A DNA stretch of 64,000 nt from Eledone cirrhosa (taxonomy: Eukaryota). Every line of letters starts with the position of its first letter. Positions within the stretch are counted from its first letter, which is position 1. This document shows positions 3,831 to 64,000 of this stretch, piece by piece. Made by a program: the position numbers and the translations under genes. The stretch is from positions 49,600,001-49,664,000 of the forward strand of contig OZ024742.1 in assembly GCA_964016885.1 (NCBI GenBank). The letters are read 5' to 3'. The notes below the pieces were generated by a model. That model had not been told where the DNA came from, did not search any database, and saw nothing but the letters and a program-made list of their open reading frames with translations.

Positions 3831-5510
3831 TTTCTCTAAATATTGTGCATATATCATACAAGAAGAACACCTGCTAACAGTAGCTAAACCTCTCTTAAAT
3901 CAAACCATAACATTGCATAATGTAAACTTTAGATAAAAATAATGAGATGTTCACCAATAGAATGCCTTTCAGACATAGATCTGCTTGTTTAAGGCTGACC
4001 TAGGGCTAAACAACAAAAACTGGTATTAAATAAATATGTCATAAAAATTGATTGTTTACTTAGATGCATTGTAAAAGATTTAGAAATATAAATTATGAAG
4101 CGATTCCACTAGTGGTAGTATGGATCACGAGGAAGATTGGTCTTGTGATTCTATTTTTATTGGAAATAATATAGAAAAGGGAAAAGAAGATTGTAAAATT
4201 CAGAACATGAAAGCTGCCTTGGCAATCTCCTTATCAAAGCTTTCATTAAATCAATCTTAATATTACCAACCTAAATTTGTTCAATTTTCTTAATGGATTT
4301 ATCAGTTTGAAGACCAATAACTTTATAGGTTTATTTAAATCCTTTCTGAAAAGTTCAAACATGCAGTAAAAGGAACTGGGATTTTACCAACTTTATTTAA
4401 TTCATTTACCAACAGAAAAACAAAAAAATAAAACCAGAATTAATGGAACATCTTATTGCATAGAAATCCATAAAGGTGAATAAAATCTATTTTGACTTTA
4501 TATTTCTTTTCTATGAAATAAAACGAAGTTGTTTTTTATCCCCAGGTTATCGTTGATGAAAGCAGAGCAATAATTAAATCATTCCAACCATGACAATCTT
4601 CTCATATTTTTACAGAATATATACCAAACCATCATTATTCAATGTGCCCTCCACTTTTAAGATGCTAATGCAACTTAGTTTTCCCATATGTTTGACTTTA
4701 CCCTTCTGTGACCACATTTCTCAAAAAATATATTGAATGTGTTTTATAATTCATTTAGAAAATAATCAACAATTTGAAGGGATTTAGTAAAAGCACTTTT
4801 TCCCTTTAAGTTGATGGGTTGGGATTAAGAAGTGTTAGGTGATTTTTTACATTTGTACTGCCTACCTTGGGAATGAAAAAATAGCTCCCATTTTTATAGT
4901 TGTTGTTGTTGTTGTTGTGTGTAGTCTGTAGAGACAATAGATTATTTTAAAATAAACTGCTATTGAGCTCACTGTTTGAAACTTAATATGTCTCAGTTTT
5001 ATTTTGCTATGGGACATTGGAAGGATACTTACTGAAAACGAAACTAACCATGCTTAACTGACAACCTTATCAAGGTGATTAGACACGCTATGTTTAAGCC
5101 AAAAGCAACAGCTGTTAAATATGTTTCTGAAGGTTGTTTGTTGTTTTTTTACTGAAGCCTATGTCTCTATAAGTAGCTTCAGAATGCTTTATAGTCATGG
5201 GTATATTTGTTCACAAACAGATACTCTATTTGTACAATAATTCATATGTGTAACCAACTCTGTTCTATTTGTTATTCATCTAAATATCATCAACACCACC
5301 ATCATCATCATAATTTTACATTCATTTTTCTGCATTTGCGTGGGTTGAATGGGTCTTTCTCAGCATAGCTTCTTTCCATCAACAGCATCCCCTCATCAGC
5401 CCCTCGATGAGGTTCAGTGTTTTAAGATCTCCACTGACTGCTTCTGTATAAAAATATAGACATTATTATTTATTTGTTTGTAAGAGAAGGTATTTGTGTA
5501 TACTAATTAT

Positions 5511-27948: not shown

Positions 27949-29253
27949 GGGTGCGGACGATATTTGTTCGCAAGATTACTGTCTAGGAAAATATAACACA
28001 GTAGTCTTATTTTTTAAGATATATATATCAAACTTGGGTCAGTTTGTCTTCATGAGTTGTTCTTTCGATCTCACTCGGTAAACCCGCCATTGACTTTGAT
28101 GACGGCCTCAAGGCGGCCTCGGAACCGGCTACAGGTATTCGTCACTGTCCCCTAATTTAGGCCCCTAAAGGCACTTGTGATCCTGGCCTTCAGATCGTCT
28201 TTCATATTGCAGCTAGATCTGTTGGTGTCTCGTTCCACTGTGCCCCACACAAAGAAGTCGTGGGGGTTGCAGTCAGGCGAGCTGGGAGGCCAGATGTCAG
28301 GTGAAGTGTGGTCGACGAAGTTCTCTGACAGCCAGGCTTGGGTCTTTCGGCTGGTATGGCAGGGCGCTGAGTCTTGCTGCCACACGTACGGCCTACCTGC
28401 AGCTGCCTGGTCGATCCAGAGCTTTACTACATCGCTCAAAACGCGGATGTAGCCATCGGTGTTCAGCTTGAAGCCCTCAAGGAAGAAGTGAGGTGGCATG
28501 ACGTCACCCTGACTGCTGACGACACTTAAGACCAATGTTGTCACTGGAAACTTTGTCTGCATGACTCTGGCACGTGTTTGGATGAGCCAGCGAGCCACCT
28601 GTTGTTCTGGGAGTTGATCTTCTGGTCTTGGCAGAACTTTTTCTCGTCGGAGAAAAACAACAGCTTGTCTGGCTCCAGTGGGTGTTTCAACTTGTTGATC
28701 AGCTTCTTTGCGTGCTTCAGTCGCTTTTCTTGCATCGCCTTTGACAGAAATTGTCCTTTCCTCATCTTGTATGAAATGTAGCGAATGTCTTCATGTACCA
28801 CCAGCCTAATGAGCTTTTTCATCCACGCCTTTCGCCCTTGCAATGGCACGCATCGACTTGCTAGGTTCATTGTTGATGATATCCTGAACTTCAGCGACGA
28901 ACTCGGACCTTCTGAAGGCGTCAGATCGTCGATCATGTGTTTTCCTCTCTGATGTTGCTTCGTAGTCGAATCCTGAATCTTTCAATTCCTTTCTGACCTT
29001 TTTCACCATTCTCCTGCTGATGCTGAGAAAGTCTGAAATTTCCTGATGTGTCCTCCCAGTGTGGATTCCAAGAAGAACTCTGTGTCTCTTCCACAAATTT
29101 GGAGGTTCAAAATTATTCCTAATCAATTATTCTGAAAATAAATAATGGAAATATAGTCACTGTTTTTATGAAGACAAGAGTGACAATGGAAGTAAAAAGA
29201 ATTTGCATAAAATTAGCAGTTGAAAATTGCGAACAAATATCGTCCACACCCTG
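27947..29253 (-). mobile_element. Full-length Tc1/mariner DNA transposon, DD37D (maT) family
   Basis: 27-bp TIRs CAGGGTG(C/T)GGACGATATTTGTTCGCAA at 27947-27973 and 29227-29253 with 1 mismatch. TA lies on the right, and TG after a (TA)n array on the left. Confidence 0.93.
28152..29126 (-). pseudogene. DD37D transposase, two frameshifts
   Basis: Three overlapping ORFs give an HTH N-terminus, FFSDEK, WQQDSAPCH and SSPDCNPHDFFVWG. There are 37 residues between the second and third catalytic Asp. Confidence 0.9.
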
Positions 29254-34679: not shown

Positions 34680-36109
34680 TTATAAGTGTGTGCATGCATA
34701 TGGATGCATATATATATGTATATATGCATATATATATATATAAATATATATGTATGTATATATATGCATATGTAAGGCCTGATGTTTGAACGAAAAAGAA
34801 ACAGTGTCTGCTGTGCAAAAGAGCCAGATGGAGGAGTATGTCAGCTAGATTTCTCTAAACTGAGTTTAGATGTGTCTTTGCACATATAATCTCGCATATC
34901 TGATGAGATGTCGAAAAAGAGTTGGGCCCTTTCTCCTTGATTGTACTCTGAGCCAATCAATATTGAAACAATTTTACTATGCAAATTAATTTTGTACATA
35001 TGCTGCAGCACTGACACCAACTCTTTTAAATCTCACTCGCTCTCTCTCTATATATACTGTATATATATATAAAACAAGCGTTGTTACAGTTTTATACCAG
35101 TTGCATTTGTGATGGGTCTGAGTTCACAGTAGAGGATATTGTGTAGTTGTATGTAGCACAACACCATATAGTTGTGAAGGAAACGTCTTAACTACACAGT
35201 CATATCTGAGCCTATAATGTCTAGACAAATATATTGTATTGGAATAGTGTATAAAGTTGTGATTTCTGGTCAATTTTATTGAATCTCATGTACTCCTCTA
35301 CAAACATTTTATTGTGTTCATTTACATCGCACCTGAAAGCACTTTCTCACTCGACTTATCTAAAATATAATTATCTCTAACTATTTCCACCAAATTTTTA
35401 TCACATTAGATTTCACAAACAATTTAAACTCATTGAGAAATTTACACTTAAGCTTCCTTGGTAAAATAATTAGCTAATCACTAAAGAATATCTGTTTCAC
35501 ATTATATTGCAGTTACATAAGATAGGCATACAACTGGTTGAAATTACATCCTGTATCTAAAATTGTTCCTGGGAACATCATATTTAACAGTATTATTACA
35601 ATTGGAGCACCTGAGCAGCATTAGAAGATTTAAATGACTAACAAAAATATTACGAGCAAAATTTACAAAGATGGTATCTTTTGTATTTAGTTCATAATTT
35701 CAAGGAGTGTTAGATACACAAGAAAAAATGTATTTAAGAATAAATTCATATTTATGTGTTAGTTTCCACTTATAATGTACATTTTCTTTAGTTTTAACCT
35801 TTCCATTAATATATTTCTAATGCAATACACTGCTGATGATATTTTAGATAATTTTGAAAATAATCAAGAATTTTGATGGATTTAGTAACACTAACCTTTT
35901 CATTAAAAATATTGAATTTGAAATATAACAAACAGACACACATAAAATAATGATGGAAGGTTTTTAGATAAATATAAATATTTTAGTACATAATACAAAT
36001 AGTTTTTTATCAGAGAACCAGGGAGCAGTTTCAAGCAGTTGGGTTAAATATTAATAAGTTTAGGTTCAGGAAAGCTTTATTTGAGGCATATGAGAAGGTA
36101 GACAAAATA

Positions 36110-36661
36110 GAAACTTATGGCATGGAGGATAATTAGAAGTTCCTACATGATAACCTACTATAGTCTACTGAAAAAAAACTTGTGCCTGGAGCAAAGCACC
36201 AGTTAGACAGAAGGTGACCAGATGGTGAAACAGCACAATAAATAGTCAAGAAACATGCATGGAAAGATTGGAAAGAAGGGGGCAGCAAACACAGGTACCT
36301 TGTAGCTAAAAGAGAAACCAAGCAATAGGTATACATGGCACAAAATGAGGCTGAAAGGAGGGGGTTTGCCAATGTCTTGTGGTGTAATGTTCAGAGGCAT
36401 AAGATGTTCCACATTGCAAGGCACCATGTCAGTGTGAATCAGGATGTTGTTGGAGAAAATTGTGTTTGAAATGACACTGGTGTACATGAATGATACTCAA
36501 AAGATAATCTAGATAGAAATGGTGTGAGCTGATCTCAGATCGCTAAAGCTTATGAAGGAGATGACAAATGAATGCAACAAGTGGAGAGATGCTGTACTGC
36601 CAAGAACCTGTCCAACGCATGCAAGTGTGGAATAACAGACATAAAATGATGATGATGATGA
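36110..36661 (+). mobile_element. Internally deleted RTE-type LINE remnant (EN-RT linker joined to 3' end)
   Basis: Manual translation gives KKHAWKDWKEGGSKHRYLVAKRE..NQDVVGENCV, then WRDAVLPRTCPTHASVE and a (GAT)n tail. Confidence 0.7.
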
Positions 36662-37386
36662 TATTTCTTACATAGAGACAAGCTCTAAGTGTAAATATAG
36701 GAAATGAGAAATAGGATTGGCTGATGTTCATATTTATTTCAAAAATGTGAACTGCAATAATTAATAATAATTAAAACCACATTGAAGGATATATTTCTTT
36801 CTTCTCTTTAGATATTGTTATTATTATTCATGACTTCCAGTATATATTGTTATCATTTTATAAGAAACCAAATATAAGAAATACTATAACTATTATTTGA
36901 GTTTCTCTATTTCTATTATATAATAGGAAAAAGTCAGTAATGATTTTTAAAATTGAAAATTTCCCCATACTATAATCATTTAAGTTCTCAATTCCTGTCA
37001 ATGTAGGTTTTGAAATCATCATATTTCCTGTTGAATACTTTTCAGAAGTTTTCTTTATTTTATGTAACATAATGTAATTATTTTTTCTCTTGTATTGTAT
37101 GGTTATAAACCAGAGAATTAATGTTTTTATAAACTATTTCACTCTGTTAATCCAATGACATGAATGTAAATCAATGCAATAAAATGGTGTCAATTTAATA
37201 TATTTCATTTAGATTCCATTTTCAAATTTTATAAAGTTATAAAAGCATTAATGTATTGAAAATAAATGAATTAATTAATGATGCTTGCAATAACAATTGA
37301 TTAAATGCTTCAGTTTTGTCTCTTTTTTTCACTTTTTCAAAAATATTTTATTTCTAATTAATTTTTTTTAATTTCTATATTTTCAG

Positions 37387-37413
37387 ATAAATTACCAAGA
37401 TCTAAGGAACCTA
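37387..37413 (+). CDS. Candidate 27-nt coding microexon of an unidentified host gene
   Basis: Branch-like TTCTAAT near 37352, T-rich tract, TTTTCAG acceptor, exon ATAAATTACCAAGATCTAAGGAACCTA, GTAAGT donor. It is open in phase 1 (xKLPRSKEP). Confidence 0.4.
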
Positions 37414-39315
37414 GTAAGTTTAACTAAATTATTCCAGCAACATTCCTGTAATATCTTGCTTATAGTGGCCTTTCTTTTTCATATATTCAGGTTAAACAAT
37501 AGTTTCTTTGTTTTCACTGAAAATGCAATTGATAATGTATTCATGTTATTAAGCATCTGATGAGAATAAATGAATGAACTGAAATGGGGGGGAACCAAAC
37601 AACAAGAAAAACAGAATTAATCAATTTAGGTTGATTAAATTTATTTGACAGCAAAACAAGTTTTAGAATTTTGATCACATAAAAACATTTATTACTCAAA
37701 ATATAGGAAGACAGAAGAAAAACCTTTTAAATGGATAAAAATATAAAAAAAAATTAAAATGTTGATGATCAAAATTATGATTTAGAAAACAATCCAAAAA
37801 AATTTTAGTAGTGTAAGAATTTTAAAATTTTGACATTCGAGTGTTGCATATTTATTTCAAAATTTGTTTTAATATTCACAAGCCATTTGGTGAATATATT
37901 ACCATTTATTAATTTTATAGAATTAAGTCTTGGAGTTATGAGGTATTGTGATTTTGTATTAAGATGGGAATTGTTGATTGATTTAAGAAAAGTCAGTGTA
38001 ATTTAACCACTGATTTATATTAAGATATGATTTAAAGTAAATAAAAAAAAATAGTCATATTATCCCTTCCTATTCTTTATTAGTTGTAGATTTTTAAACA
38101 TAAGTATTTATGGATCCATAGATCCTGGTGGAGTCATAGCAGTGCTATAGTGACATACAGCAAGTTTTGAGTACTTTAAACATGGTGGAGCTCATCCTAT
38201 CTCCAGGTTGGTACACAGACATTTTCTTTCGGAGAAGGAGATAAATAATGATAGAGAAGTGAAAAAGATACATAGAAGAAGAATAAACCCTAGTACTCTA
38301 CTGATACGTTTTATTAATTTTGAAATGATGAAAGCAAAATTGACTTTCTTTAGATTTGAAATCAGAGCACAAAGCATGCTATCAGATGTTTGAAGTATTC
38401 TGTCGATTTGCTACACCAGTAAACATATAATGAAATATATCCAACCATTGGACAATTAATCTCCATATTGCCTGAAATGTTGTCAGTTGTTTTTTACCTC
38501 CATGTCAGCTCTCATTGATGTAGCCTTCCATTCTAGTGTCACCTGCTTTAACATCAAAAACTGTACCTTGACTCACTTCAGTGGAGTCCACTCTGTTGCA
38601 AACATTCAAATCAGGTGTCCAGTTGGAAGATACCTTCCTCTTTCTGACCAGTATCTGAGACCCTGAAAAGGATTACGGACATTGTTGTTCACCGTCTGAC
38701 TAATCAGTAAAACCACAAAAGCCTATGATGAAAAACATGGACCAAACTTAAATTTTCAATCACTATATCTAGGATCTTGCAATGAATTAGCAGAGTAATT
38801 AGAGTACTGGATTAAATATGATCCAGTATTTTTTTAGGCTCACTCTACCGAGTTGAAATCCCATCAGTGTCATCATTGCCTTTCATTGCAATGATATCTG
38901 TAGATAAAGTATCAGTCTAGTACTACAGTTAATTCATTCTTGATTTATCTTTCTCTGGAAGACAGCAACTAGGATATAACAGTTTGAAGGATGGTCTTCA
39001 TCAAGTTTAAAATGGCCAAACTACACTGTCAGGATGGTGCTCATATGACTCCAACAACAATTAGAGCCATTTGTATCTAGAACCACATTATTCAGTATGT
39101 TCTTCCTTTTTTTCAAATGGTAGGGTGATAGTGAAGGTTATTTGGGTACTATTTTTCAATCAAATATAGAACTGCTCCTCTGATTGGCAATGAAAAAAAC
39201 CAAGGCACACACACTTGTGTGTGTGCCTTGGTTGTGGTACAGGAAGAATGTGTCTCCAGTTTTATTGCCAGTTCAAAGGCCACTGCTCTTTTCAACAACG
39301 CCAAATAACAACGCC

Positions 39316-39405
<90 letters not shown>

Positions 39406-39656
39406 TTATTTATATATATATATGCATAAATGAAGAGAGAAAGAGGGAAGGACAGAGAGAGTAAGAAATGTGTGTATGTGTGTGTATTTGAAATGTGTGT
39501 GTGTGTCTCCTACAGGGGACTCAAACATGGTAGACCAGACTGAAAAAATAAAAGATATATATATATGTGTGTGTGTGTATTATATATATTTGCCTCACAT
39601 CTCGGAGGTTGTTTTTCGTTATTTCGTGGGCCGAAATGCGAATATCGATAATTTAT

Positions 39657-39703
<47 letters not shown>

Positions 39704-39831
39704 AAAGTTCTATTTAAAATTGTCGGGATACAACAAGTAAATATTTTTATACTATCCGGATGACTTCCAAAAACAATGGTTGCATTTTAATAGGGTACGT
39801 CAAAGCTTATTTGTAAAACTGTTATATATTG

Positions 39832-39896
39832 TATTTTGTCTGATGAAGGCATACCATAATTTAATTTGGTATCCCTGAAATATGTATAGTGAAATA
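39832..39896 (+). ncRNA. Type I hammerhead ribozyme motif (minimal, Penelope/retrozyme type), copy 1
   Basis: TATTTTGT-CTGATGA-AGGCATACCA(10-nt loop)TGGTATCCCT-GAAA-TATGTA-TA-GTGAAATA. Stem I forms with three G-U pairs. Confidence 0.7.
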
Positions 39897-39995
39897 AATA
39901 TGGTTTTATAAATATAGTTTCCATTTATTAATATCGTATATATATATATATATATATATATTATACACACACACTCACACACATATATATATATA

Positions 39996-40056
39996 TATCC
40001 TTACACACTTAAATATAAATGCATAGCTATATACATACGTAAATGTATGTATGTAG

Positions 40057-40103
<47 letters not shown>

Positions 40104-40642
40104 ATGTAGGTTTATATTCTATTATAAATTATTAGCTATTTATTATTATGTATCTTTATACACATTCTCATACGCACCCTCTGTATTATATGTAATCTTT
40201 TCATGTTTCAACTTATAAGGTATATAAATATTGAGTTTTGTCAAAACTAATTCACTGCCATGACTGAATTGTACCCATCAACATAGTCAAGGTATGTCAA
40301 GCATCAACTTATTTTATCTGATGAGGACGTACTGTTGAAATACCTCAGTACCTCTGAAATATGTATAATAAAATATATTTGATCACATGAATGTCTATAT
40401 TTATTAATATTTTGAAGTAATATTAATAACCCCAGAAATCATTTTTGTGGAGTGCTTCTATTCTATTGTGAAACTTTATTCATTGATTTATTCATTGAAC
40501 CTTGTTTAACCTTTAATTATATATATATATATATATAAATCTACATACTTACATATATACATACATACATTTACGTATGTATATAGCTATGCATTTATAC
40601 ATTTGTATATAGCCGTGCATTTATATTTAAGTGTGTAAGGAT
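39996..40642. repeat. Inverted repeat (about 80-120 bp arms) enclosing hammerhead copy 2
   Basis: ATCCTTACACACTTAAATATAAATGCA..TAGCTATATACATACGTAAATG is mirrored by CATTTACGTATGTATATAGCTATGCA..TGCATTTATATTTAAGTGTGTAAGGAT. Confidence 0.85.
40310..40375 (+). ncRNA. Type I hammerhead ribozyme motif, copy 2
   Basis: TATTTTAT-CTGATGA-GGACGTACTG(11-nt loop)CAGTACCTCT-GAAA-TATGTA-TA-ATAAAATA. Stem I is a perfect 8 bp. Confidence 0.78.
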
Positions 40643-40789
40643 GTTGACATGATTATTTATTGGGGAGGGGTATGGAGAAAATTCTGTCTCCAGATTTTAT
40701 TACCTAGGGATATTAAATACCACAGCTCTGGCTGAAAGCTGACCAGGTTCTCAACCTCATCAAACACTAATGCAGGCTTGTGTGATATG

Positions 40790-40825
<36 letters not shown>

Positions 40826-41244
40826 CGTATGCATGTGTGTGTATGTTCGTTTCTATGTATATGTATACACCCACACCTTTCATCACCATTGCTTCTTTTT
40901 GTTGTCATTTCTGTTGAAGTTGTTCTTGTAACTGTTGTCAAAGTTGACGTTCTTATGTTCATTTTCTTTGATTTCTTTTGTTTATCTTTTATCTCCCTAG
41001 GGAATTCATTGACAAGCTTATTTTCTTTATTTTCTTCGTTTTCTTCATTCAAATGCATTCACACTTGCTGTCTAAGAGACGTACACATATGACTTATAAA
41101 ACTTACCAAACTAAAGGGGCTTCCAGCGCCCCAAAGCTTCAAACGCCCCCTAACGCCCCCTTGCTGCAAAACGCACCCCTGGAGCTCCGAAATGCCGGGT
41201 GGGATATGCCCCCCCCCCCCGTTGAGAACCTTTGGCCCAGAGGA

Positions 41245-41412
41245 CTATTGTGCACAGCAGAACAGCAGTGGGCTAAGAACCGAACCTTGATGAACTAACA
41301 GTATCTTCACTTGCTTACTAAACTCACTTCCTACTCTCACATTACTGACAGCTCCTCTGGAAATGGCTTGCACTGCTCTTACAAGCCATTCTTCTACACC
41401 TAGTTTCATTAA
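41245..41412 (-). mobile_element. RTE-type RT fragment
   Basis: KLGVEEWLVRAVQA..VRVG..VHQGSVLSPLLF, homologous to the start of the 48224-48820 ORF. Confidence 0.75.
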
Positions 41413-41430
41413 GGACATATATGTGTGCAC

Positions 41431-41467
<37 letters not shown>

Positions 41468-42909
41468 GAGAGAGAGAAAGGAAGTGAAGAAAAGAAAGTA
41501 AAATATCCCCCTAAATAGTTATAATTCATGTATCTACATATACATATTTATATGTATATATTTACACAATCTTTTCATTTTCAAGTAATTTTTATATTTC
41601 TAACCTTCTTCAGAAGTCAAATTTCACTCACCACTATACTGCAATTCTTTACATTATGAAATCTATACACGTCTATTCAATTATATTGCTAAAGGCTTGC
41701 AATCGTTACTGCCAAGCAGATTCTTTTTCTTCTGCCAAAATCAATAGTTCAGAAGCATTGATATCCATTATAAGACTATTTCCAATACTGCTTTTCCACC
41801 TTACACCCCAAATATTGATTATTTTATTTCTTATTTTGTCTTTTTATATTTCCATATTATCTTTCTATGATTTATTATTTTTCCAAATATTTATGGCTGT
41901 GTTCATGTTAATTTTAGTGTCATGCAGCGGTGTTTGCTTCTATATGCTCGACTGTGTGTGTGTATATATATATGTATATAGAAACATATAATATATATAT
42001 ATATAATATTTATATTCAGATTTTCCTCCTTTTCCTTTCCTTTGATATTTTCAAAGAAGATTTATTTGAGAATGAAGCCTTAATCTTTAAAAACTTTAAT
42101 TGAAACTCAGAAAATGCAGAAGGGTTTATAAATGGAACTTTAAAGAAAAGGGAAAGAACGAACTGTAATCACAAATGTGTATTGTCTAATTAAGCAGATA
42201 AAAAGGAGAAACATCAAATACATGACAGAATTCAGAGTTCCAGTGTGATAATTCTTGATTGAAATCCCTCAACAATAGCAATGAAAATATAAATTCAATG
42301 AATAAACAGCTGAAATGAATAGAAAGAAACAAACATTATCTGAACATATAAAAACAAACGAACAAACGAAAAAGGCAAATTGCAATTACATCTTTATTAG
42401 TGTTTTATTTTGTATGCTTTTCTTAATGACTATCGTAATAGTTTCTTTAGATAATGAAACGAAAATGGAATACATTTCCATCCATTTGTATTCAAATAAT
42501 AATAAACAAGAAATTTGTAAAGGAATTCAGCCGGATAATGTGTGTACTTTTGGGGAACAATTACCTCAACTAATATGAAAGAAGTGTAACTCCATATGGA
42601 ATTTCATACAACTTGTTTCTCAGCTTTTACTGTAGTTTCATTTGCTGTGGTTGAATTTTACAGCTTCTAACAATAACACCAGCAACAGTAGTAGCTCTTA
42701 CTGCAATGCCATATCATTAATGATAATAGTAATAATCAGATGTATGAATTCAATAGGAAAATATAGTGTCTAATAGGTTCTTAAGTACATTAGTGGATAT
42801 TTATGCACTCTGATGAGGAAGGTGTTGGCAGTGGTCTTATATGATAAATCTGTGTCTTGATAAGTATACTAACTTTCAAATGTGGAGACAGCATAACTGA
42901 AGAGTTAAA

Positions 42910-43170
42910 AAGGCTCTCGGTTCAATCCCCCTGTGTAACAGATACCTTAGGAAAGTATTTTTTACCATAACCTTGAGTCAACCAAAGCTTTGTGAATGAA
43001 ATTGGGTAGATAGAAACTATTTTGAAGCCTGACAGATGGATTTTTACCTGTAGTTCAAAGGGCCAGCTTTGCCACACACTGTGTCACACTGTGTCTCCCT
43101 GAGCATTATTTAATGGTACATATGTCTGTTAAATGCTCAGTCACTTTCAGGTTAATTTCAGGAGCATGCC
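42910..43170 (+). mobile_element. Second tRNA-type SINE family (B), degenerate
   Basis: GGTTCAATCCC B box. The body matches the reverse copy at 12140-12480 (AAAGGGCCAGCTTTG.CACACACTGTGTCA). Confidence 0.6.
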
Positions 43171-45725
43171 ATTAATTTCATCATCTCATGTGGACAGACG
43201 GACTCACACATACTTGTATAATAGAATATGTTCAATGAACCATAATATTTCAAACTTTCAAACATTAACTGAATGTGCACTCAATACTGGTAAGTAGAGT
43301 ATAGAAATATCTTGTTTAAATAGAATTGGAAAGATCATTAAACTTTCCTGCATTATTATGTGGTCATACTTAGGTTTTGTTAAATTTATGAAATATGTTT
43401 GCATTTTTGTAAAAATGCTTCAATGTTGGTTAACTAAAAAAATAGTTGAGCAAGTTGAATAAGGGTTGGTATTCAGCTGTTTATTGATAGACAGGCTACT
43501 TGTAATTAAATACATGTGTAGAAGTGACGTCAGAATGAGTATCCTCCACCACCAACTAACTTACCCTCCACCTCTGGACTTCGGCCAACAAGATGGAGAA
43601 TGCATTGACCCAGAGGATGATGAGGGAGTCGCACTGAAACAGCCACTTCACCTCTCAACTGCAGGTAGACCAACTGCAGGCAGCCAACTCCACTTTGATA
43701 GCAGTGCGTAGGGATGTAGTCCAGGGGCTAAGAACATGAGAAATCTCCACTGCTACAGGCTCTCCCACAAACCTATCTTAGAGTGGTCGATACTTGGAGA
43801 GTTTGCCCTCTTCAGCTACAAGCACAGGCTTTGCTGCCTGCAAAGCTGATGTTGAATAAGTAACCAGTGGAGAGAGAAAAATATAGACTGATCCACTTCT
43901 AATTATTTTGCTGCTGTCCAGCACAAAGAAGATATAATATTTGATTCCCTCAAGGGTCTCTGTCTAAGTTTTTGCATTGCCAGGGGTTACTTACCTGACA
44001 TATTCAACTATTATTTGTAGTTTCTCTGCATTGTGGCAAAAAGCATGGATGGGCTCCATTAGGTTTAAAATGTCACTAGGACACGACTTTGACTCCATCA
44101 AGAATTACATGCCCATACATATACATTATTCTTCATATCTTCCAGCAAGGCATAGTTGGACATTTTATTATCCTTTCTGATGCCAACAATTCTCCTTGTT
44201 TTTAAAGATTTGGCTCCAACATTTACAAGTCAAGAATGAGATATTTCCTATTTATTGTACTGTACAACTTATTTCTTTTTACTAATACTTGGTTCACTGT
44301 CCAAATTATGTTTACTTTTTAGTACTTGCAGATCTTCATGCAGTTTAGCTTAGGGAAGCAGGCAGATACAAATATTTCTGCTTGCTATATGTATTTGTAT
44401 GGGTATGTGTTTGGCCTTATTACCTCAAACAGTGTGTGTCAAGTGCTTTGCTAAAGTACAGTGATCTGCACTGAAACTATTATGTGTGCATGGAAAATAT
44501 TTTACAGAATTTGTGTAAGAATTTTAAAATAAACAAACAATATTTTAGCTTCTCCGCATTTCTTAATAAATTTTGAGTATAAAATGTAGTTAAACAAACA
44601 GACGTGTTTCTCAGTGCATAGGTGTTGCTTGCATCATGTTTGTTTCAGTGATTCAGGTGAACTTCTTTCATCAGTGCAATTGCCTGTTGTAATTTTTCTT
44701 TAAACAATTAACTCTAAAATAGTAAATGGATTATGTCAAGAAAACATAACAACCATGCTTAAATGAAAAGATAGCTAGCAAGCTTAGGTTGCATGTCTGA
44801 TGAATAAGATTTTTAAGCATAGTGTCCATCATGCACTTCTTGAAATAAAATTATATGCTATTTCAATAGGTTAATTCAGAAAGAAACAAACCATTCACAC
44901 CTTAAAGTCATATTTTCAGGTATTTCAATGTATTCGTTCAAGAAGAAACAAAATAAACCATTTGTTTTGAACAAAGGTGTAAATTATTTGGAGAAAGTTT
45001 TTGAGTAACAGAAACCAGAAAGTAAATAGATATGCATACATTAAGTTGGTGACCCATTTTGTTGCTCTATAATATTAAAGACAAGAATTTAGGTTATTCT
45101 ATCGTTTCTCTGTGATAGAGAGAAAATGAATGTCTATTTGCTTCAAATAAAGGTGATCTCTTATCTAGGAAATATCCTTAAAACATGAAGCTTATGTATT
45201 GTATTATAAAACGAAATCAAGTAAAAATGACATGCTTTTTGTTTTAAGCTATTTTTTATTTGGTAGTGCTAACAATTTCTCTATAAAAATATATCCATGA
45301 ATTAATGTATATTTCATGTTTCAAATATATACACAACGTCAATTGTTTGAATATTTAGGCACACAAATATGCAATAATATTAACATTATTATAGTGATTT
45401 TATGATTTTATAAGGATGGAAGTCAGAAAGTGTTAGAGCATAGAACAAAATGGCTTATATCATTGAGAAATATTCTTTACATATTAAGGTTTCAGTTACT
45501 GCTGGAAAATATAATGTGAGTCAATTTAAAATATTCCCTATAAAATGTGTAGCTTTGAGCCATTCATCATCATCATTTTTACATTAAATTTTTCATGCTA
45601 GAATGGGATGGGAGGGACGTTTTGCGACAGTGTCTTACAACTGGTTACCATTCCTGATACTAATCCTTTTAGTCACGTCCTATGGTACACAAGGATAGGG
45701 CTTATCTATTCTAAACTGGATACAC

Positions 45726-47325: not shown

Positions 47326-48828
47326 CATCATCATCATCATCATCATCGTTTAACGTCCATCTTCCACACTTGCATGGGTTTGTACGGGAGTTTTCCCACT
47401 TGAGGCAAGATTTGTTGTCCTGTTCGTATAGGACTGTCTGGCAGGTTTTCTACGGCTCGATGCCCTTCCTAACACCAACCACGTTTACAGTGTGGACTGG
47501 GTGGTTTTTACCGTGTTACCTACACGGCCACATTACAGCATGGACTGTGTGTTTTTTTGTTGTGACACCTACACGACCTCATTTGTTTCGGACTGGATGT
47601 TGTGGTACCAACATAACTTCACATTTAAGGGGGTGGTGTGGATGGGGTCGGGGGTAGTGGGACGGGGTGTATTTTGTTAGAGGTGCCTACTGACTGTAGG
47701 TTTCGCTTTGTACTTAGGCAAGGCGGGTCTTCTGTATGACTGTGTAGTGCCAAAGATCTCGGTCCAGTGACATTGTCTTGGAGAGGTGTAAGTGTGTGAG
47801 GTCGGAATTTATCAAGTTGTCCCAGGTTTTTCTGGGCCTGCCTACTCCGTGGCTACCGTCTATTTTTATCACCCTGCTCTTTTTTATACCGCTGTCGTCT
47901 TTCATGCACATCACATGACCGTACCAACGTAGTCTTCTCTCGACTAAGCAACATCTGATCCCTCTTATTCCTAATTTCTCCCTTAGTTTGTTTATGCTTT
48001 GCCGTTCACGTATATTACTATTACACATCCAGCATTTCTCTCAAGTCTGCGAATGTCCTCTGCAAACAATGCCCATGTCTCACTGCCATTTAACATTGCT
48101 GTTCATATGCAGGCATCATACAGCCTGCCTTTCATTTTTAGAGAACCCTTTAGCGGCCAATAGTGGTATAAGCTTTCTGAACTTTTTCCATCCTGTTCTG
48201 ACTCTAGCTACTGTACTTTCAAATCACCCTCCCCCACTGCTGATTTTGTCACCCAGGTAATGGAAAGTGTCCACTATTTCTATAGAACCATCTGTGCAAT
48301 TGAACAAGCTAGTATTCTGTGGGCACTTGCTGCTACTTAATGCACGAGAGCACCGGCCACATGTAACATCTATATTCTTAGTTAGCTTACCTGTGATCCC
48401 ACTACATCTTTTATGCACCCATACTTTGCATTTGGGACATAAAATGGAGTTTCTGCCTACTCCTTTCCTACACACAGAGCATGGCCATTTCCCAGATGGG
48501 ACCGGTGCCCTATTTTCCTTCCTACAAACTAGAACTTTAATCTTAGACAAGTTAACTTTAAGGCCTTTTGTTTCTAGGCCATGCTTCCATGTTTGGAATT
48601 TCTTCTCTAGTTCAGCCATTGATTCAGCTATGAGCATTAGATCATCTGCATATACAAGTTCCCATGGGCAGCCGGTCTTGAACTCCTCTGTTATAGCTTG
48701 AAGGGCAATAATAAATAGTAGTGGGCTAAGAACGGAGTCCTGATGAACACCAACTTTTACGCTAAACTCTTCACTATATTCGTTGTTAATTCTAACCTTG
48801 CTGACTGTTTCTTTATACATGGCTTGTA
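47325..48828 (-). mobile_element. 5'-truncated RTE-type LINE (RT with embedded PHD finger, C-terminus, 3' UTR, (GAT)n tail)
   Basis: ORF 48224-48820 has VHQDSVLSPLLF, YADD, a C4HC3 finger and FHYLGD. ORF 47714-48028 has RRLRWYGHV and GRPRKTW. The 3' UTR ends GGACGTTAAACGATGATGATG. Confidence 0.88.
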
Positions 48829-48900
48829 CATATATATATACATAGAGTATATATCACCTCCATCTTATGTCCATTTTCCACACTAGCATTTAATATTTCA

Positions 48901-58302: not shown

Positions 58303-61300
58303 TTACAGACACATACTCAGAGAAGGCCCATTCATTCGGGCCATACTTGCTTCTCTCACCCATCTTTCAACAAAATGCTGGGAAGAGAGCACTTCCCTCT
58401 CTACCCTGATTTTCCTTTTCAAATGAAATTTGAAAAAGTTAATCAGGGCATCACCGAAGAGGTAAGTGCTCGTCTTCAGCCCTTTCAAACGTGTCCACCA
58501 TACTATCTCTTTCGCCATGGCCACCAGACAGATAAAAACTGCCTGCCCTTCCCGGCTAAAGGAAGAGGGCGGGGCAATCCTCACGATGGACTCAGCTGAT
58601 AGCCGGATCCGTCCTACACGTGACAGCAGGTGTTCGACATAAACCCACAAGTCAGCAATGTTCGGACACTGGACGAGTGCGTGCAGGACAGGGTCGTCGC
58701 CCTGTGTGCATCTCGGACATGCCCGGCTGACGGCACCTCCATGCCTGTAGAGTTTATCCCGAACTGGCAAAGCTCCCCGGTAGCACTGCCAGGCCAGGGA
58801 TTTCTGGAAGTTGTCCATAGGCACCGGCCCGAAAGTCCTTCCTAAGAGATTGGCTAGTTGATTTTCGTCGACGCCTAGAGTTTCTCCAAGTACGTCGTCG
58901 CTCTTCCTCTCCACTAATCCCCTATAGAACGCCAAGGTGGAGTTTCCACCGATCACATTGCCCGATTGGTCGAGAACTGTGAGCGCCTGAAGACATTCCA
59001 GTCTCCAAGCGCTCCCTCTCGGTCTTCGCTTGATCCAGGACTGCAGCTCCGTCAAGGAGACGAGCTGGGGAAAAACATGTCTAGCAAACCGCGACCACAC
59101 CTGATCACCGCCGAGGAAGAGGTGGAGATGTCGTAGCCTGAGCGCGTGTATGCGCATCATCAGCCACGGCATGCCCAGCCCTCCACGTAGCGGGTGTTGA
59201 CAGCAGATGGACCGCCTGACTATCGGAGCGCGTCCCTTCCACAAAAAGCGAAAGAGCAAACGCTCCAGCGCAGTCAGGCGGGGCTTAGGACAAGGTACGA
59301 CGGTCAGGCGGTAGTAGATGACGGACGCGATGTACGCGTTAGCCACATCCGCTCGACCTTTCAGGGATAGCTTCCTCTCGGCCCATTTCTGGGTGAGAAA
59401 AGCCACCCTGCTCGTCACCTCGTCCCAGTTTTTGTCCGTCTGGAGGTCTGGACCGAACCAGACCCCTAGCAATTTAACTGGTCCGTCCGTCCAGCGCCCG
59501 ACGACGCTGTTGGACGGCATGGACCTGCCTCTCCAGGTGCCGAGCTGCAGGCCCACTGACTTTTCCTGGTTGATCATTGCTCCTGTCACCGCTTCGTATT
59601 CTCTTAGTGTAGTGCCGATCGCCTCGATGTGTTTAGCGTTCGACACCACTACGGTGACATCGTCCGCATATGCTGACACGGATCTTCCGCATCCTAGTTC
59701 GCGCGGGACGCCCCTCAACGTCTCCAGTTTGTGCAGTAATGGCTCAATACGTACAATAGGGACGAGAGGGGACATCCTTGGCGGACCGAGCGCATGATGT
59801 TGAACGGTTCCGAAAGGTGACCGTTCACTCTCACTACAGAGCAGATGTCGCTGTGCATGGCAGCGATCCAGCCTCTGAAGATGGGCCCAAAGCCAGCCGC
59901 CCTCAGGACTGCCGCTAGGTAACGATGGTCGACCCTATCGAAGGCTTTCGACTGATCTAAATTGATCAAAGACCCACCCGTGCCAGGTTCCCTAGCTACC
60001 CTCTCTACGATGTATCGCATGAGGTGGAGGTTGTCGTGGATGGATCTGACGGGAATGGCGCATGTCTGCGCCTCTTCCACCAGACCACCAACGACAAGCG
60101 CCAACCTCTTTGCTAGCACCTTGGCAAAAATCTTGAACTCTGTGTTTAGCAGAGTTATCGTCCTAAAATTATCTATGTTATCACCCTTGTTCGGATCCTT
60201 TCTCAGCAGCGCCACCGCTCCTCGGCTCACAGAGCTGGGAATTCTCCCGTTCTGTTGCCAGTTGCAGTAGACGTCCGCCAAGAGGCCTCCGAACAAGTCT
60301 GGCATTTGTACGTAAAGTTCATCCAAACCAGGCGATTTACCCCTCGTGCAGCCAGTCATTTCCTCCCGTACTTCAGCGGTTGTTATCGGCTTTTCGCAAC
60401 ACTCCGCCTCAGTGGCCGAGAGCCGCGGCAGTCCGTCGAGGTAGACACTAAAGACCATCCCTCGATCCGGCCAGCCGCTGCCCCCGAACAGCTGTGCGAA
60501 GTGTCGCTGAAAAGCTTCACACATTTGCCCGGGATCGAGTAGCATGCGCCCGTCGTGGTCCACCAAATACCGGATCGTGGCTTTGTTGCCACGACGTGCC
60601 TCCGGCACTCGGGCCCATTGAACAGCTTTCGTCCCCTCGTGTCTGAGAGCACGCACCCTAGCTCTGACAACGCAGCCTTCGTGCTTTGCATTGAAGTATT
60701 GGTCAAGGGCCAATTTCGCCGCAAGTACGTCGGTCGCGATGCCTTTGCTAAGCGCTTCGTCTAATTTTCTAACTAATTCTCCCTCTGCTCTATTTTTCTC
60801 TATTGCTAAAGCCTTACTAAACCTAGTGGACTCTATTCTAATTGCTCTTTTCAGAGCAAACCACCACTTGTTGTTGACGATGGCCCCCGTCAACGCCCGC
60901 TTAACTAGTTCGCTAATCCGGTCTCTGTAGGCCTTGCGCGCTGGTAAGGACGCGTTTAGCTTCCAGTAGCCGGGTCCTCGTCTATGAAGCCTATCTAAGT
61001 CAAGCACACAGATCACGAATTTGTGGTCCGTGTAGCTGACTATCTTGAATTGTGGACATCCTATGCTAGACCTATCTATTTCCCTACAAATTACTCTATC
61101 TAGATATGATCTGGATGACCATATGCGATTTGTCCAAGTCCACATTGGCACATTCGGGAAATCCAATCGGTACCTGTCACACAGTTCAAAACGCCTGAGC
61201 AAGTTGGTGAGACTCTTGCACCCTCCTCCCCTATCTACTAATACCACACAGTCCCAGCGTGTATCTAAGATCCCGTTCCAGTCGCCCACTAACAATAAAG

Positions 61301-61703
61301 AGCGGGACGTTCCAAGAAAGGTCTCCGGACGCCGGAAGAAATCAGGCCGCCCTGCTCCTGTCGGGGCATAGACGGCCACTAACCTGAAAGCTTGCCCGTC
61401 TCCGCTGGTCACGTCCAGCACCATCAAATTACCTACTGGGTCCAGGAAGATGGCCCGTATGGCAAGATCCAAACCTCTCCGAAAAAGCACAGCAACTCCT
61501 CCCCCCGATCCCGGACGGCTGGGAGATGCGTACACATCGTAGCCGCCGAAGATCGGTGCGAAAGCCTGTGCTTCGGAGATTCTGGTCTCGCTGATGGCCA
61601 CTACATCTATGTTTAGTGACCTGAGGTCGTTGAGCAGGTGGCCCTGCTTCCATGACGACCCCAAGCCACGCGCATTTATGCTGCCTAATCTGAGTGAGGT
61701 CAT
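58303..61703 (-). pseudogene. LINE ORF2 (AP-like endonuclease, reverse transcriptase, C-terminal zinc finger), one frameshift near 59750
   Basis: ORFs 59715-61703 and 58303-59775. APE motifs SINARGL, ISETR, VYAP, LVGDWN, YLDRV, TDH. Linker GYWKLN. RT motifs SPGLD, DQSKAFDRV, RQGCPLS, AYADD. C-terminal CPRC..H...C. Confidence 0.93.
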
Positions 61704-61728
61704 GTTGAAATGGAGTGGAAAAGGTCAC

Positions 61729-63688
61729 TTACCTTACTTCTCCTAGAGGAAGGATGGTTTCTCCATGTTTTTCACTGCTTGTGGCCTCCTCGGGAAGGAT
61801 GTCCTTATAAATCCTCCTGGAGAGTGCCTGTCGGAAGTCTCCGATGTCTTTGGGGAATTTTTGTTTTAGTGTCATGTACGTTTTCTGTGTGATGCGAGTG
61901 ATTTGTATGTGTGGAGGTGGTGTGAACTTTTGGGTTGTTGTGTAGTCTTTTTCTGTGATGCTGGTGTTGTGTTGGATGTAGTGTAATAATTGGTTGTTGT
62001 TCAAATTTAATGCTGTATAGTGTGTCTCGATTTGGTTGTTTTGTTTTGTTTGCGTTTGTTGTGGGTTTGTTTCTGTTTCGCATTTTGGTGACTTTTGTGG
62101 TGTAGGAGATGGTGGCGTTGGGGTTAATGATGGTGATGGTGTTGGTGTTTGTGGTGATAGGGTTGGTGATGATGGTGTGGATGGTGGCATGTCTGTCCTA
62201 ACTTTTTTGTTTGATAGTTTATTTGTTTCCCTCTGTATTTTGTTTTTGGAGGGGGAAGGAAGATAATTTTTTCTTTTTTGGTTTCTTTTTTTCTATTTTC
62301 CTGATACCGTTTCTAACTCCTCGTCGTCACAATCTGTCTCCAGTTGTGATAGGCCGGGGAGTGGAAAATCCTCCACAGGCGTTAGTTTTGGTTGTGGCGT
62401 GGTGGATGGTGTAGGCGCTGGTGCGAGTTCTGGCGCGTTGGGTGGTGGTGGTGGTGTTGGTTTTGCTACTGTTGCTGGGGTTGTTGCTGTTACAGTTGCT
62501 TCTGTTGTTGCTGCTACAGTTGTTGCTGCCATCTCTGCTGCTGTTGGTGTTGATGGTTGAGTCACTGGTGTGGGTAGGAGAGGTGACCTCAACCTTTTAG
62601 CCTGAGGGCAGAAAGCCCTTAGGTGGGTTCCTTCACCACAAACGACACACCTAGCCTTCTGCCCTCGACAATTACGGTGAGGTGGCTTCCGTCAGTGAGG
62701 TCTATTACCTCTGGGATCTCCTCAATGCTTTTTTTGGTCCGCTTGGATCAGGAGCTCCATCCCAGATCCAGACCATTTCTCCTGCTTTTCTTTCGCTATT
62801 TCTATTATCTTGGTGTTAGCGTCGATGCCGGCGAGGACGGCAGCTATTAGCCAGGGAATTTCGATGGCCGGTGGAACGTTGGTCACCCTGATTTTTACGA
62901 TTCTTTGGCCACAATAGCTTGGGACGAGTGTGAAGTCGTCACTTCTTAATGGGGCCATGGAGTGATCTCTAGCCTGGTGTTTCAAAGAACACGTCCACGG
63001 TTCCATACTTCTGCCCACGTCTGATGTGGGTTTTTTTTCCTACACATGTCTCAAAGCTTTTGTGATTTTTGGACTCGGATGCCCGTTCCACTCGGCGTGA
63101 TTTTACATTAATTGTTCGATAAGACACGCTGCATAGGCGCCGATGCTCCATTTTATTAGGTGTGGGGGGGGGGGGGGGGCTGACCCTGTACCAATCTTTC
63201 TTTACCATTTTTTTGGCTTCTTCCAATTCCTCCTGAGTTACCTGAAATGCTTCGCACTGTTTTGCTACTCTGGCAAAACTCAGGGGGGTTTTCTTAATGT
63301 CATTGTTGCTGTTGTTGTTATCGTTATTTTTGTTAATATTAATTTTAGTTTCAGTTGTGGTGGTGGTGGCGTCAGTGGTGTTCGGTGTGGAAGAGTTCAT
63401 TTTGGTTGAATTCATTTCGACATCACGAGTTAATTTATTTTTTACTTTTGTTTCTGCTGTCGCGGTGGTGGTGGGGGTGGTGGTTGTCGCGGTGGTGGCG
63501 GCTTTAACACCTGCTGTCATTGGTAATGGCGGGAAATGAATGTCTGCCTGAGACAAATTTAAAATATTGTAACTGCTTATATTTTTAGTGTTGGCAAACG
63601 TAGTAATATTTACAATGGTGGTGTCGGTGTGAGGTGTTAGTTTGTGAGGAAGGCTCTCAGCTGCTTGGTGCAGAGTTGAATCAGCCAT
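61729..63688 (-). pseudogene. LINE ORF1 (gag-like, CCHC zinc knuckle, Thr/Pro-rich tracts), several frameshifts
   Basis: ORF pieces 62969-63688, 62722-63018, 62293-62592 and 61729-62190 chain together. Manual translation near 62608-62650 gives CVVCGEGTHLRAFC (CX2CX4HX4C). The stop lies 25 bp before the ORF2 ATG. Confidence 0.8.
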
Positions 63689-64000
63689 GATTTTCTTTTC
63701 AAAGAAATTTTTTGATAATCATAAAAGTTTAAATTTTGGGCACAAGGCCCCAATCTTTTTGGGTGTCCTTTTCAGATAACAATGTATGTGCACTTATATA
63801 CAGTTAACAATACAAAAATTTCCATAAATGGCAATTTTAAATAACTGAAAATAATAAACCTTTGCGGAGCTCACGATGATACGATTTACTACGTAGGTCG
63901 CCAATAATAATAATAATAATAATAATAATTACAGACCGATAATTTGCTTGACCACAATGTATAAAATTTTAACATCAGTCCTAAGTGAATATACATATAA

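Follow-up and report, generated by a model that had tools for sequence, protein, structure and literature searches.

The Hydra clade of Penelope-like elements (PLEs) was described by Craig et al. 2021 (PMC8557442), and the accessible part of that paper supplies the marks used below, gives lengths of 1.1–3.0 kb for the published families and calls the role of PLE hammerheads unclear. It records Hydra-1_Obim of Octopus bimaculoides at 2507 bp with the remark 'no pLTR', and several of its Hydra motifs are without a G-C pair at positions 10.1–11.1. For PAc, a Poseidon element of Anolis, the accessible part of Frangieh et al. 2024 (PMC11167929) reports that internal starts of reverse transcription define the tail in vitro and that uncleaved RNA was the main substrate in vitro. 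As far as the accessible parts of two further papers go, the pseudo-LTR of D. virilis Penelope holds an Inr/DPE promoter (PMC2377424), and dimeric action of PLE-type hammerheads has been reviewed (PMC6765202).

The window analysed here is a 64-kb stretch of Eledone cirrhosa DNA in which two hammerhead motifs, HH1 and HH2, lie close together on one strand. The initial annotation had read them as a tandem pair within a single retrozyme or PLE unit. The link to Penelope holds, but the pair is not a tandem: HH1 and HH2 are very probably the 3′ pseudo-LTR ends of two sister PLE families with Hydra-clade marks, here called A and B, which probably arrived in separate events, in neighbouring (TA)n tracts within an older repeat, Z. 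The features of the locus are as follows.

39206..39590, no strand assigned: host repeat Z, left part with internal (TA)n; 84–92% identical to paralogue L172 (41 matches, best 40 of 482 candidates scored)
39701..39750, minus strand: family A, 50 nt of the ~91-nt tail in inverted orientation, with (TA)n at the end; 93% identical to the tail of full-length copy L191
39751..39936, plus strand: family A, short tail-less 3′ pseudo-LTR; 98% identical to full-length A and beginning exactly at the putative +1
39751..39782, plus strand: putative A start site at 39751, from the pile-up of 5′ ends, and DPE-like GGTTG at +28 (39778–39782), an RGWYV word
39832..39896, plus strand: HH1, type I hammerhead motif of family A; predicted cut after 39888; 3,691 exact genome copies of its 25-mer (core and stem II)
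39937..40100, no strand assigned: spacer of two (TA)n tracts and the middle of Z; aligns with L172, L173 and L177
40101..40517, plus strand: family B, 5′-truncated copy with 3′ UTR end, pseudo-LTR, tail (40421–40517) and (TA)n; fixed 3′ end; linked to an ORF in L159, L161 and L164
40221..40260, plus strand: family B, TATA-like box at 40221–40228 and putative start at 40254, from the 5′ ends of B copies
40310..40375, plus strand: HH2, type I hammerhead motif of family B; predicted cut after 40367; 420 exact genome copies of its 25-mer
40518..41196, no strand assigned: host repeat Z, right part; 82–92% identical to paralogues

The motifs themselves are largely as first described. The CTGATGA cores begin at 39840 and 40318, 478 bp apart on the plus strand, and both motifs carry the AUA cleavage triplet (predicted cut sites 479 nt apart), the common string GAAA-TATGTA-TA and an identical 8-nt stem III palindrome. 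Stem II has 10 positions in each, with a C-C mismatch at position 4, and all five of the listed paired changes separate the two stems. The 8-bp stem I needs qualification: both motifs have the 8 positions, which form 8 Watson-Crick pairs in HH2, but in HH1 they include three G-U pairs, one arising through an A>G change at 39889 that is present in 1 of 91 family A copies. The upstream flanks do contain related motifs, but these lie 46 nt and 27 nt before the respective cores and are thus out of register. The type I core (CUGANGA, GAAA and U16.1-H17) is complete in both, and CTGANGA is kept in 87 of 91 A copies and 58 of 64 B copies; a loose form of the core pattern has 14 matches in the window where 4.3 are expected. 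The 10.1–11.1 pair is A-U in HH1 and G-U in HH2 in place of G10.1-C11.1, which is usual rather than defining for type I hammerheads. The proposed search with hammerhead models came up empty, as no Rfam hammerhead family appeared among the 38 matches at E ≤ 10 in 36000–44000, which were of low complexity only. By core and pairing, both motifs are type I hammerheads with a palindromic stem III, linked to Penelope elements and predicted to self-cleave.

The two motifs recur in the genome as members of separate families. The reversed controls of both 25-mers gave 0 matches in the 3.0-Gb assembly. A query around HH1 returned 51 matches from the best 40 scored of 1,497 candidates and one around HH2 returned 41 from the best 40 scored of 2,242; the 40 best B copies are 91–96% identical to 40101..40517, and A and B are ~67% identical to each other in the ORF and 70% over the ribozyme region. 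An A core followed after a gap of 446–476 nt by a B core, as an exact pattern, occurs at two loci genome-wide, the window and C18:3761884, and the spacer of the latter is unrelated to that of the window. Of the 479 nt between the cut sites, family A contributes 48 nt and family B 267 nt, and the 164 nt between these are (TA)n and host repeat.

A classical non-LTR retrozyme, of which the window would be the dimer relic of a tandem ~479-nt non-coding monomer, would account for the shared strand, the retrozyme-like spacing and the type I motif, and PLE pseudo-LTRs and animal retrozymes are related according to the accessible part of 10.64898/2026.07.22.740005. We nevertheless regard this origin as hardly credible. 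When the 479-mers on either side of HH2 are compared, the spacer is not repeated and alignment is confined to the last 57 nt and a single low-complexity piece. No same-strand run of three copies under 1 kb exists among 155 surveyed copies, and inspection by eye of the first 100 listed matches of either 25-mer revealed no same-strand neighbour under 1 kb. Tandem non-coding monomers with a hammerhead in each were found neither at the locus nor among the copies, and HH1 and HH2 both trace to coding elements.

Repeat Z spans 39206 to about 41196, flanks A and B and supplies the middle of the spacer; it is continuous, with neither A nor B, in paralogue L172 (G000:C1:174110900-174114136, minus strand). 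This empty paralogue, the two distinct families and the host-repeat spacer speak against the tandem pair. The middle of Z at 39962–40062 is the inverted arm of 40518–40642, and a reading of 39996–40062 as an inverted target duplication from insertion was rejected, as it is an internal palindrome of Z. Without insertions Z measures ~1.1 kb; it contains an internal palindrome and several (TA)n tracts, and we saw no hammerhead belonging to it. The distance between its left and right parts varies from 0.2 to 5.5 kb among copies, so that Z serves as a landing pad for elements that target TA. At 39591–39660 Z carries a third insert, 78% identical to L026:2578-2704.

The initial annotation had proposed a search for linked Penelope RT/GIY-YIG ORFs, and these were found: family A has a full-length ORF, and B is joined to a homologous one. 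Full-length A elements consist, in order, of a hammerhead, the tail, a short 5′ UTR, one ORF, an AT-rich 3′ UTR of ~1.6–1.8 kb, a second hammerhead and (TA)n. The units between hammerheads measure 4161, 4234, 4297 and 3951 bp, and several A copies retain open frames of 743–751 codons. The 743-codon frame contains DKT, YRDD, CNCRNKSNC and VVY..YVG and is without CCHH. An AlphaFold model of the A protein (pLDDT 89.9, 76 sequences) has telomerase RTs as its top four fold matches (best E 4e-9, TM 0.35), and its C-terminal part can be aligned with a GIY-YIG domain confirmed by Pfam (E 1.2e-5; Atlas score 0.95). Pfam searches with five A/B fragments gave neither RT nor GIY-YIG at E ≤ 0.1, and a PDB sequence search gave weak RT matches only (E 0.67). 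Family B ends a homologous ORF, two fragments of which share 48% and 64% identity with A, and no B frame was found intact. The best named database relative is an Argonauta hians protein at 39% identity, and the best database protein reaches only about 40% over the full length. The word 'cephalopod' in the earlier suggestion of an undescribed retrozyme or PLE-derived family agrees with the Argonauta relative; A and B are PLE families, not retrozymes.

A telomerase-like RT and a GIY-YIG domain in one ORF, as in PLEs, are indicated by motifs, model and alignment, and the copies have pseudo-LTRs in partial tandem or inverted arrangement, a tail at one end and a hammerhead in the pseudo-LTR. Turning to the Hydra marks, DKG is replaced by DKT (SDKT in the intact A frames and in B; D and K in 76/76 and T in 66/76 homologues), and the CxCX5C linker reads CNCRNKSNC in A and CNCRNRSNC in B, with its three Cys in 76/76. 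CCHH is absent, with a single Cys between the GIY-YIG halves that is conserved in 6/76 homologues, and 127 of 155 copies end in (TA)n. The units, at 3951–4297 bp, exceed the published 'shorter than 3 kb', which is descriptive and not diagnostic. By sequence, A and B fall among the Penelope-like elements of the Hydra clade on every diagnostic tested, the published alignment having been compared by eye rather than through a tree.

In the frame at L192:1284-3509, His650, Cys699 and Cys702 are present in 76/76 homologues and Cys726 and His728 in 74/76; these five residues are a possible zinc site of Hydra endonucleases replacing CCHH. A second PLE of 784 codons with a CxxxCxxC linker (L096:2686-5037; L091, L093) was considered as the parent and set aside, since it has an unrelated 3′ end, shares 24% identity with A and shows no pattern-matching hammerhead in its tandem copies. 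This element is very young and abundant (27,713 candidates), lies beside some A/B copies and has an RT/GIY-YIG frame with a CCHH-type endonuclease and CxxC between the halves; an overlapping 455-codon frame precedes it, and it forms 4.7-kb tandems. An upstream ORF is unusual for an endonuclease-bearing PLE.

Insertion ends were surveyed in 155 distinct copies from 209 loci (91 of A and 64 assigned to B, including one that a loose match marks as a further sister family), the loci being best-match samples biased to young copies. The 3′ end lies at a first site in 76 of the 155 and at a second site, 91–97 nt further, in 51, both followed by (TA)n; 8 of the remaining copies continue into the 5′ UTR and 20 end in other ways. 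Within family A, 51 of 91 copies have the tail-less end and 24 of 91 a tailed end like that at 39701..39750. Among divergent same-family pairs, the tail is at one end only in 27 of 41. Such one-tail pairs are the PLE signature, and they agree with the in vitro finding of two internal RT start sites in PAc. The window insertions follow these patterns, A comprising an inverted 50-nt tail piece and a tail-less direct copy, and B being tailed and 5′-truncated.

The 5′ ends of short copies were collected separately. For A we used the first 100 contig C1 matches (of 4,100 in all) of a 33-mer downstream of the cut site, a sampling chosen to avoid the young-copy bias of the best-match loci. With +1 placed at a CACT motif 89 nt before the core, 51 of the 100 copies reach >60 nt upstream of CACT, 0 begin at −60..−31, 4 at −30..−2, 16 at −1..+13 (5 exactly at +1), 24 at +14..+120 and 5 at +129..+143. 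The excess near the predicted cut is weak (P 0.08 for the last class against the neighbouring rate), and no end falls at +136..+142, the interval that holds the cut at +139, although chance alignment extension may hide two or three; the ends around +139 may include a minor cleaved-template class. For B, the first C1 matches supplied 20 loci holding 22 motif copies, and 13 of the 22 ends lie at +1..+7 of the homologous CACT and 1 at −60..−2. The arms of one insertion are not independent, and a binomial P of about 1e-8 therefore overstates the pile-up.

Consensus words and spacings of the Inr, DPE and TATA elements served as the reference for the sequence around +1. Of the offsets from 21 to 36, only +28 carries an RGWYV word in family A, present there in 51 of 63 copy strings from a set of partly unmerged overlapping loci; family B has a TATA-like box ~30 nt upstream of +1 and no DPE at +28. 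We infer promoter function for these start sites and boxes in both families, and the initiator-like pile-up in A and B suggests reverse transcription of uncleaved RNA in vivo. A competing explanation, which we think unlikely, is that the pile-up reflects fold-back at a palindrome and not a start site, and that the hammerheads are either monomeric, with the short stem III stabilised by protein, or non-catalytic. Palindromes do occur at the pile-up, ATCCGGAT in A and CATG in B, and at +3..+10 they draw fold-back junctions in several copies. Against this, the five A copies that start at exactly +1, the several copies that join (TA)n or unrelated DNA and the exact +28 position of the DPE-like word are better matched by a start site.

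Family B also contains fold-back pairs with a spacing of 144–145 bp, centred on CATG beside the putative +1 (C1:214646226, C1:306020233, C2:62557954, C2:212469959 and C2:215983526), which are either a recurrent junction or a small amplified derivative.

Long copies need another template: among 11 A copies continuing into the 5′ UTR, 6 have an upstream repeat that extends well beyond +1. Such copies fit a circle or multimer of the kind proposed in the accessible part of PMC4209133, and plain read-through from an upstream promoter fits them as well.

Pairing in the hammerheads was assessed in 20 hand-picked variants out of 168 fetched loci and the window, a set that includes both window copies, one near-identical copy per family and one motif from another element. 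Across these variants 91.1% of 436 cells pair, compared with 33–57% in slid controls, and both sides change in 12 of 22 pairs. The observed pairing or two-sided-change value was reached in 0 of 500 shuffles, a count that is not a probability, as the variants are kin to each other, the structure was read from the same rows and the changes are not independent events; a measure of 'further pair types' was unexceptional (91/500 shuffles). The three helices are paired at 98%, 90% and 100%, and helix I has the open end. Of the 20 variants, 19 leave the stem II mismatch unpaired, whereas the inner stem III pair is UG in 11, UA in 5, CG in 4 and unpaired in none. The covarying stems claimed from the two window copies are thus borne out across sister families, and a genomic family that keeps the core and the stem pairing exists.

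The MFE folds of the HH1 and HH2 monomers differ from the active three-way junction, which lies 5–7 kcal/mol above the MFE. A double hammerhead is within 1.5–3 kcal/mol of the MFE for family-typical pairs and for HH1:HH2, and 8 kcal/mol above it for HH1:HH1. These fold energies, together with the kept palindrome, lead us to favour action as a dimer; Lunse et al. reportedly described dimeric PLE hammerheads. The monomeric or non-catalytic alternative introduced above draws on the PAc hammerhead, which according to the accessible part of PMC11167929 needs protein for cleavage and is not required for insertion in vitro, and on the missing G10.1-C11.1 pair in both HH1 and HH2. It is opposed by the complementary inner stem III of all 20 variants, since a 2-nt monomer loop would not need pairing, and by the energetic cost of the active monomer fold.

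Dimer action raises one further origin for the locus itself, a chimeric retrozyme at birth, in which read-through from the A promoter would allow an A/B heterodimer to cut at 39888 and 40367 and release a 479-nt circle. The A copy retains the putative +1 and the DPE-like site, the two motifs have the same stem III palindrome and form fully paired cross stems I, and the heterodimer folds at −23.5 kcal/mol against a co-fold MFE of −25.0, compared with −17.2 for HH1:HH1; moreover, Penelope 3′ pseudo-LTRs can drive downstream transcription (PMC2377424, accessible part). However, the double-hammerhead fold in cis lies 21 kcal/mol above the MFE (−112.7 versus −133.9) and the unit has not been amplified beyond the two loci with their unrelated spacers, and it is on these two grounds that we consider the chimeric cut very unlikely. 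The 479-nt piece would also be without a tail, and PLE hammerheads cleave poorly in vitro (PMC4209133, accessible part).

For the preferred reading, two sister PLE families that inserted independently, the following course can be proposed. A promoter in the pseudo-LTR would start the RNA at +1, which precedes the core by 89 nt in A and by about 65 nt in B. The GIY-YIG domain would nick (TA)n, and the RT would start within the RNA at one of two sites ~90–97 nt apart. The choice of site would produce an end with or without the tail, and inverted insertions would usually have one of each kind. The A copy of the window and other short copies would be cDNAs whose synthesis reached, or nearly reached, the 5′ end of an uncleaved RNA, and they would therefore keep an intact hammerhead. 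The hammerhead most likely acts as a dimer through the 8-nt stem III palindrome, and the dimer would cut multimeric or pLTR-ORF-pLTR transcripts into ~4.2-kb units able to circularise. The natural cleavage unit would then be the coding element of 4.0–4.3 kb, with solo copies like HH1 and HH2 as by-products. Tentatively, and with rather less than even confidence, we suggest that the copies record two templates used in vivo, the uncleaved 5′ end of the promoter transcript giving short hammerhead copies that begin at the initiator, like the A copy of the window, and the hammerhead-cut circle or multimer giving long and more-than-unit copies that extend upstream of the start site, so that the dimer hammerhead would act as a switch between abortive short copies and new active tandems.

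Further hammerhead families were encountered at L161:4320 (−), L043:2570 (−), L153:1018 (−), L065:813, L164:1381 and L157:8545, with palindromic stems III that include ATGCGCAT, ACATGTGT, ACTAGT and others; given these other palindromic stems III, the genome holds many PLE-type hammerhead families. No host exons were recognised in the 64-kb window. Elsewhere in it lie what we take to be a near-complete LINE-like element with endonuclease and RT frames (58303–63718, minus strand), an RT fragment (47919–48853) and a DDE transposase-like fragment (28152–28981). The locus is an ordinary one, two truncated retrotransposon ends in a microsatellite landing pad, and it cautions that neighbouring same-strand hammerheads need not mean a retrozyme. 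The value lies in the family, which is young, retains open frames, numbers thousands of copies and shows both a pair of sharp RT starts and a sharp step of 5′ ends; it offers in vivo statistics and clear constructs for asking when the ribozyme cuts.

Our literature search covered sources other than Repbase/Dfam, most subscription journals, bioRxiv supplements and the supplementary figures of PMC11167929 and PMC4209133, and within that scope we found no account of families A and B or of PLE start-site pile-ups. Within that coverage, and on every diagnostic tested, A and B are new families of Hydra-clade PLEs with an unusually long 3′ UTR and tail; Hydra-1_Obim was already known. As far as the accessible parts of the cited papers allow comparison, they share with the Hydra clade (PMC8557442) a single ORF of RT and C-terminal GIY-YIG, DKT, CxCX5C, the absence of CCHH, (TA)n targets, a sense hammerhead near the 3′ end and RT motifs that match the published alignment by eye. 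They differ from Hydra-1_Obim in size (an A unit of 4.0–4.3 kb with ~1.6–1.8 kb of AT-rich 3′ UTR, versus 2.5 kb), in the hammerhead (stem II of 10 positions, its mismatch kept, and a stem III palindrome of 8 nt), and in having clear pseudo-LTRs and copies in the thousands. The PLE hammerheads of Cervera and de la Pena 2014 (PMC4209133) are likewise of type I, with a long helix II and a short palindromic helix III, and are mostly solo copies, with opposite-strand pairs 100–700 bp apart; A and B depart from them in having no G10.1-C11.1, an A-U-rich helix I of 8 bp and an internal mismatch at the fourth position of stem II. Animal non-LTR retrozymes (PMC7229834; 10.64898/2026.07.22.740005) resemble the locus in type I hammerheads a few hundred bases apart and in PLE ancestry, whereas the locus has no tandem monomer and its motifs come from different coding families across an unrelated repeat spacer. 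PAc (PMC11167929) is similar in its two internal RT starts downstream of the hammerhead, which define the tail, and in its AT-rich targets; the A/B tail, by contrast, measures 91–97 nt against 30–40 in PAc and lies in the 5′ UTR before the ATG, both A/B ends fall at TA-like template letters, and the two systems belong to different clades.
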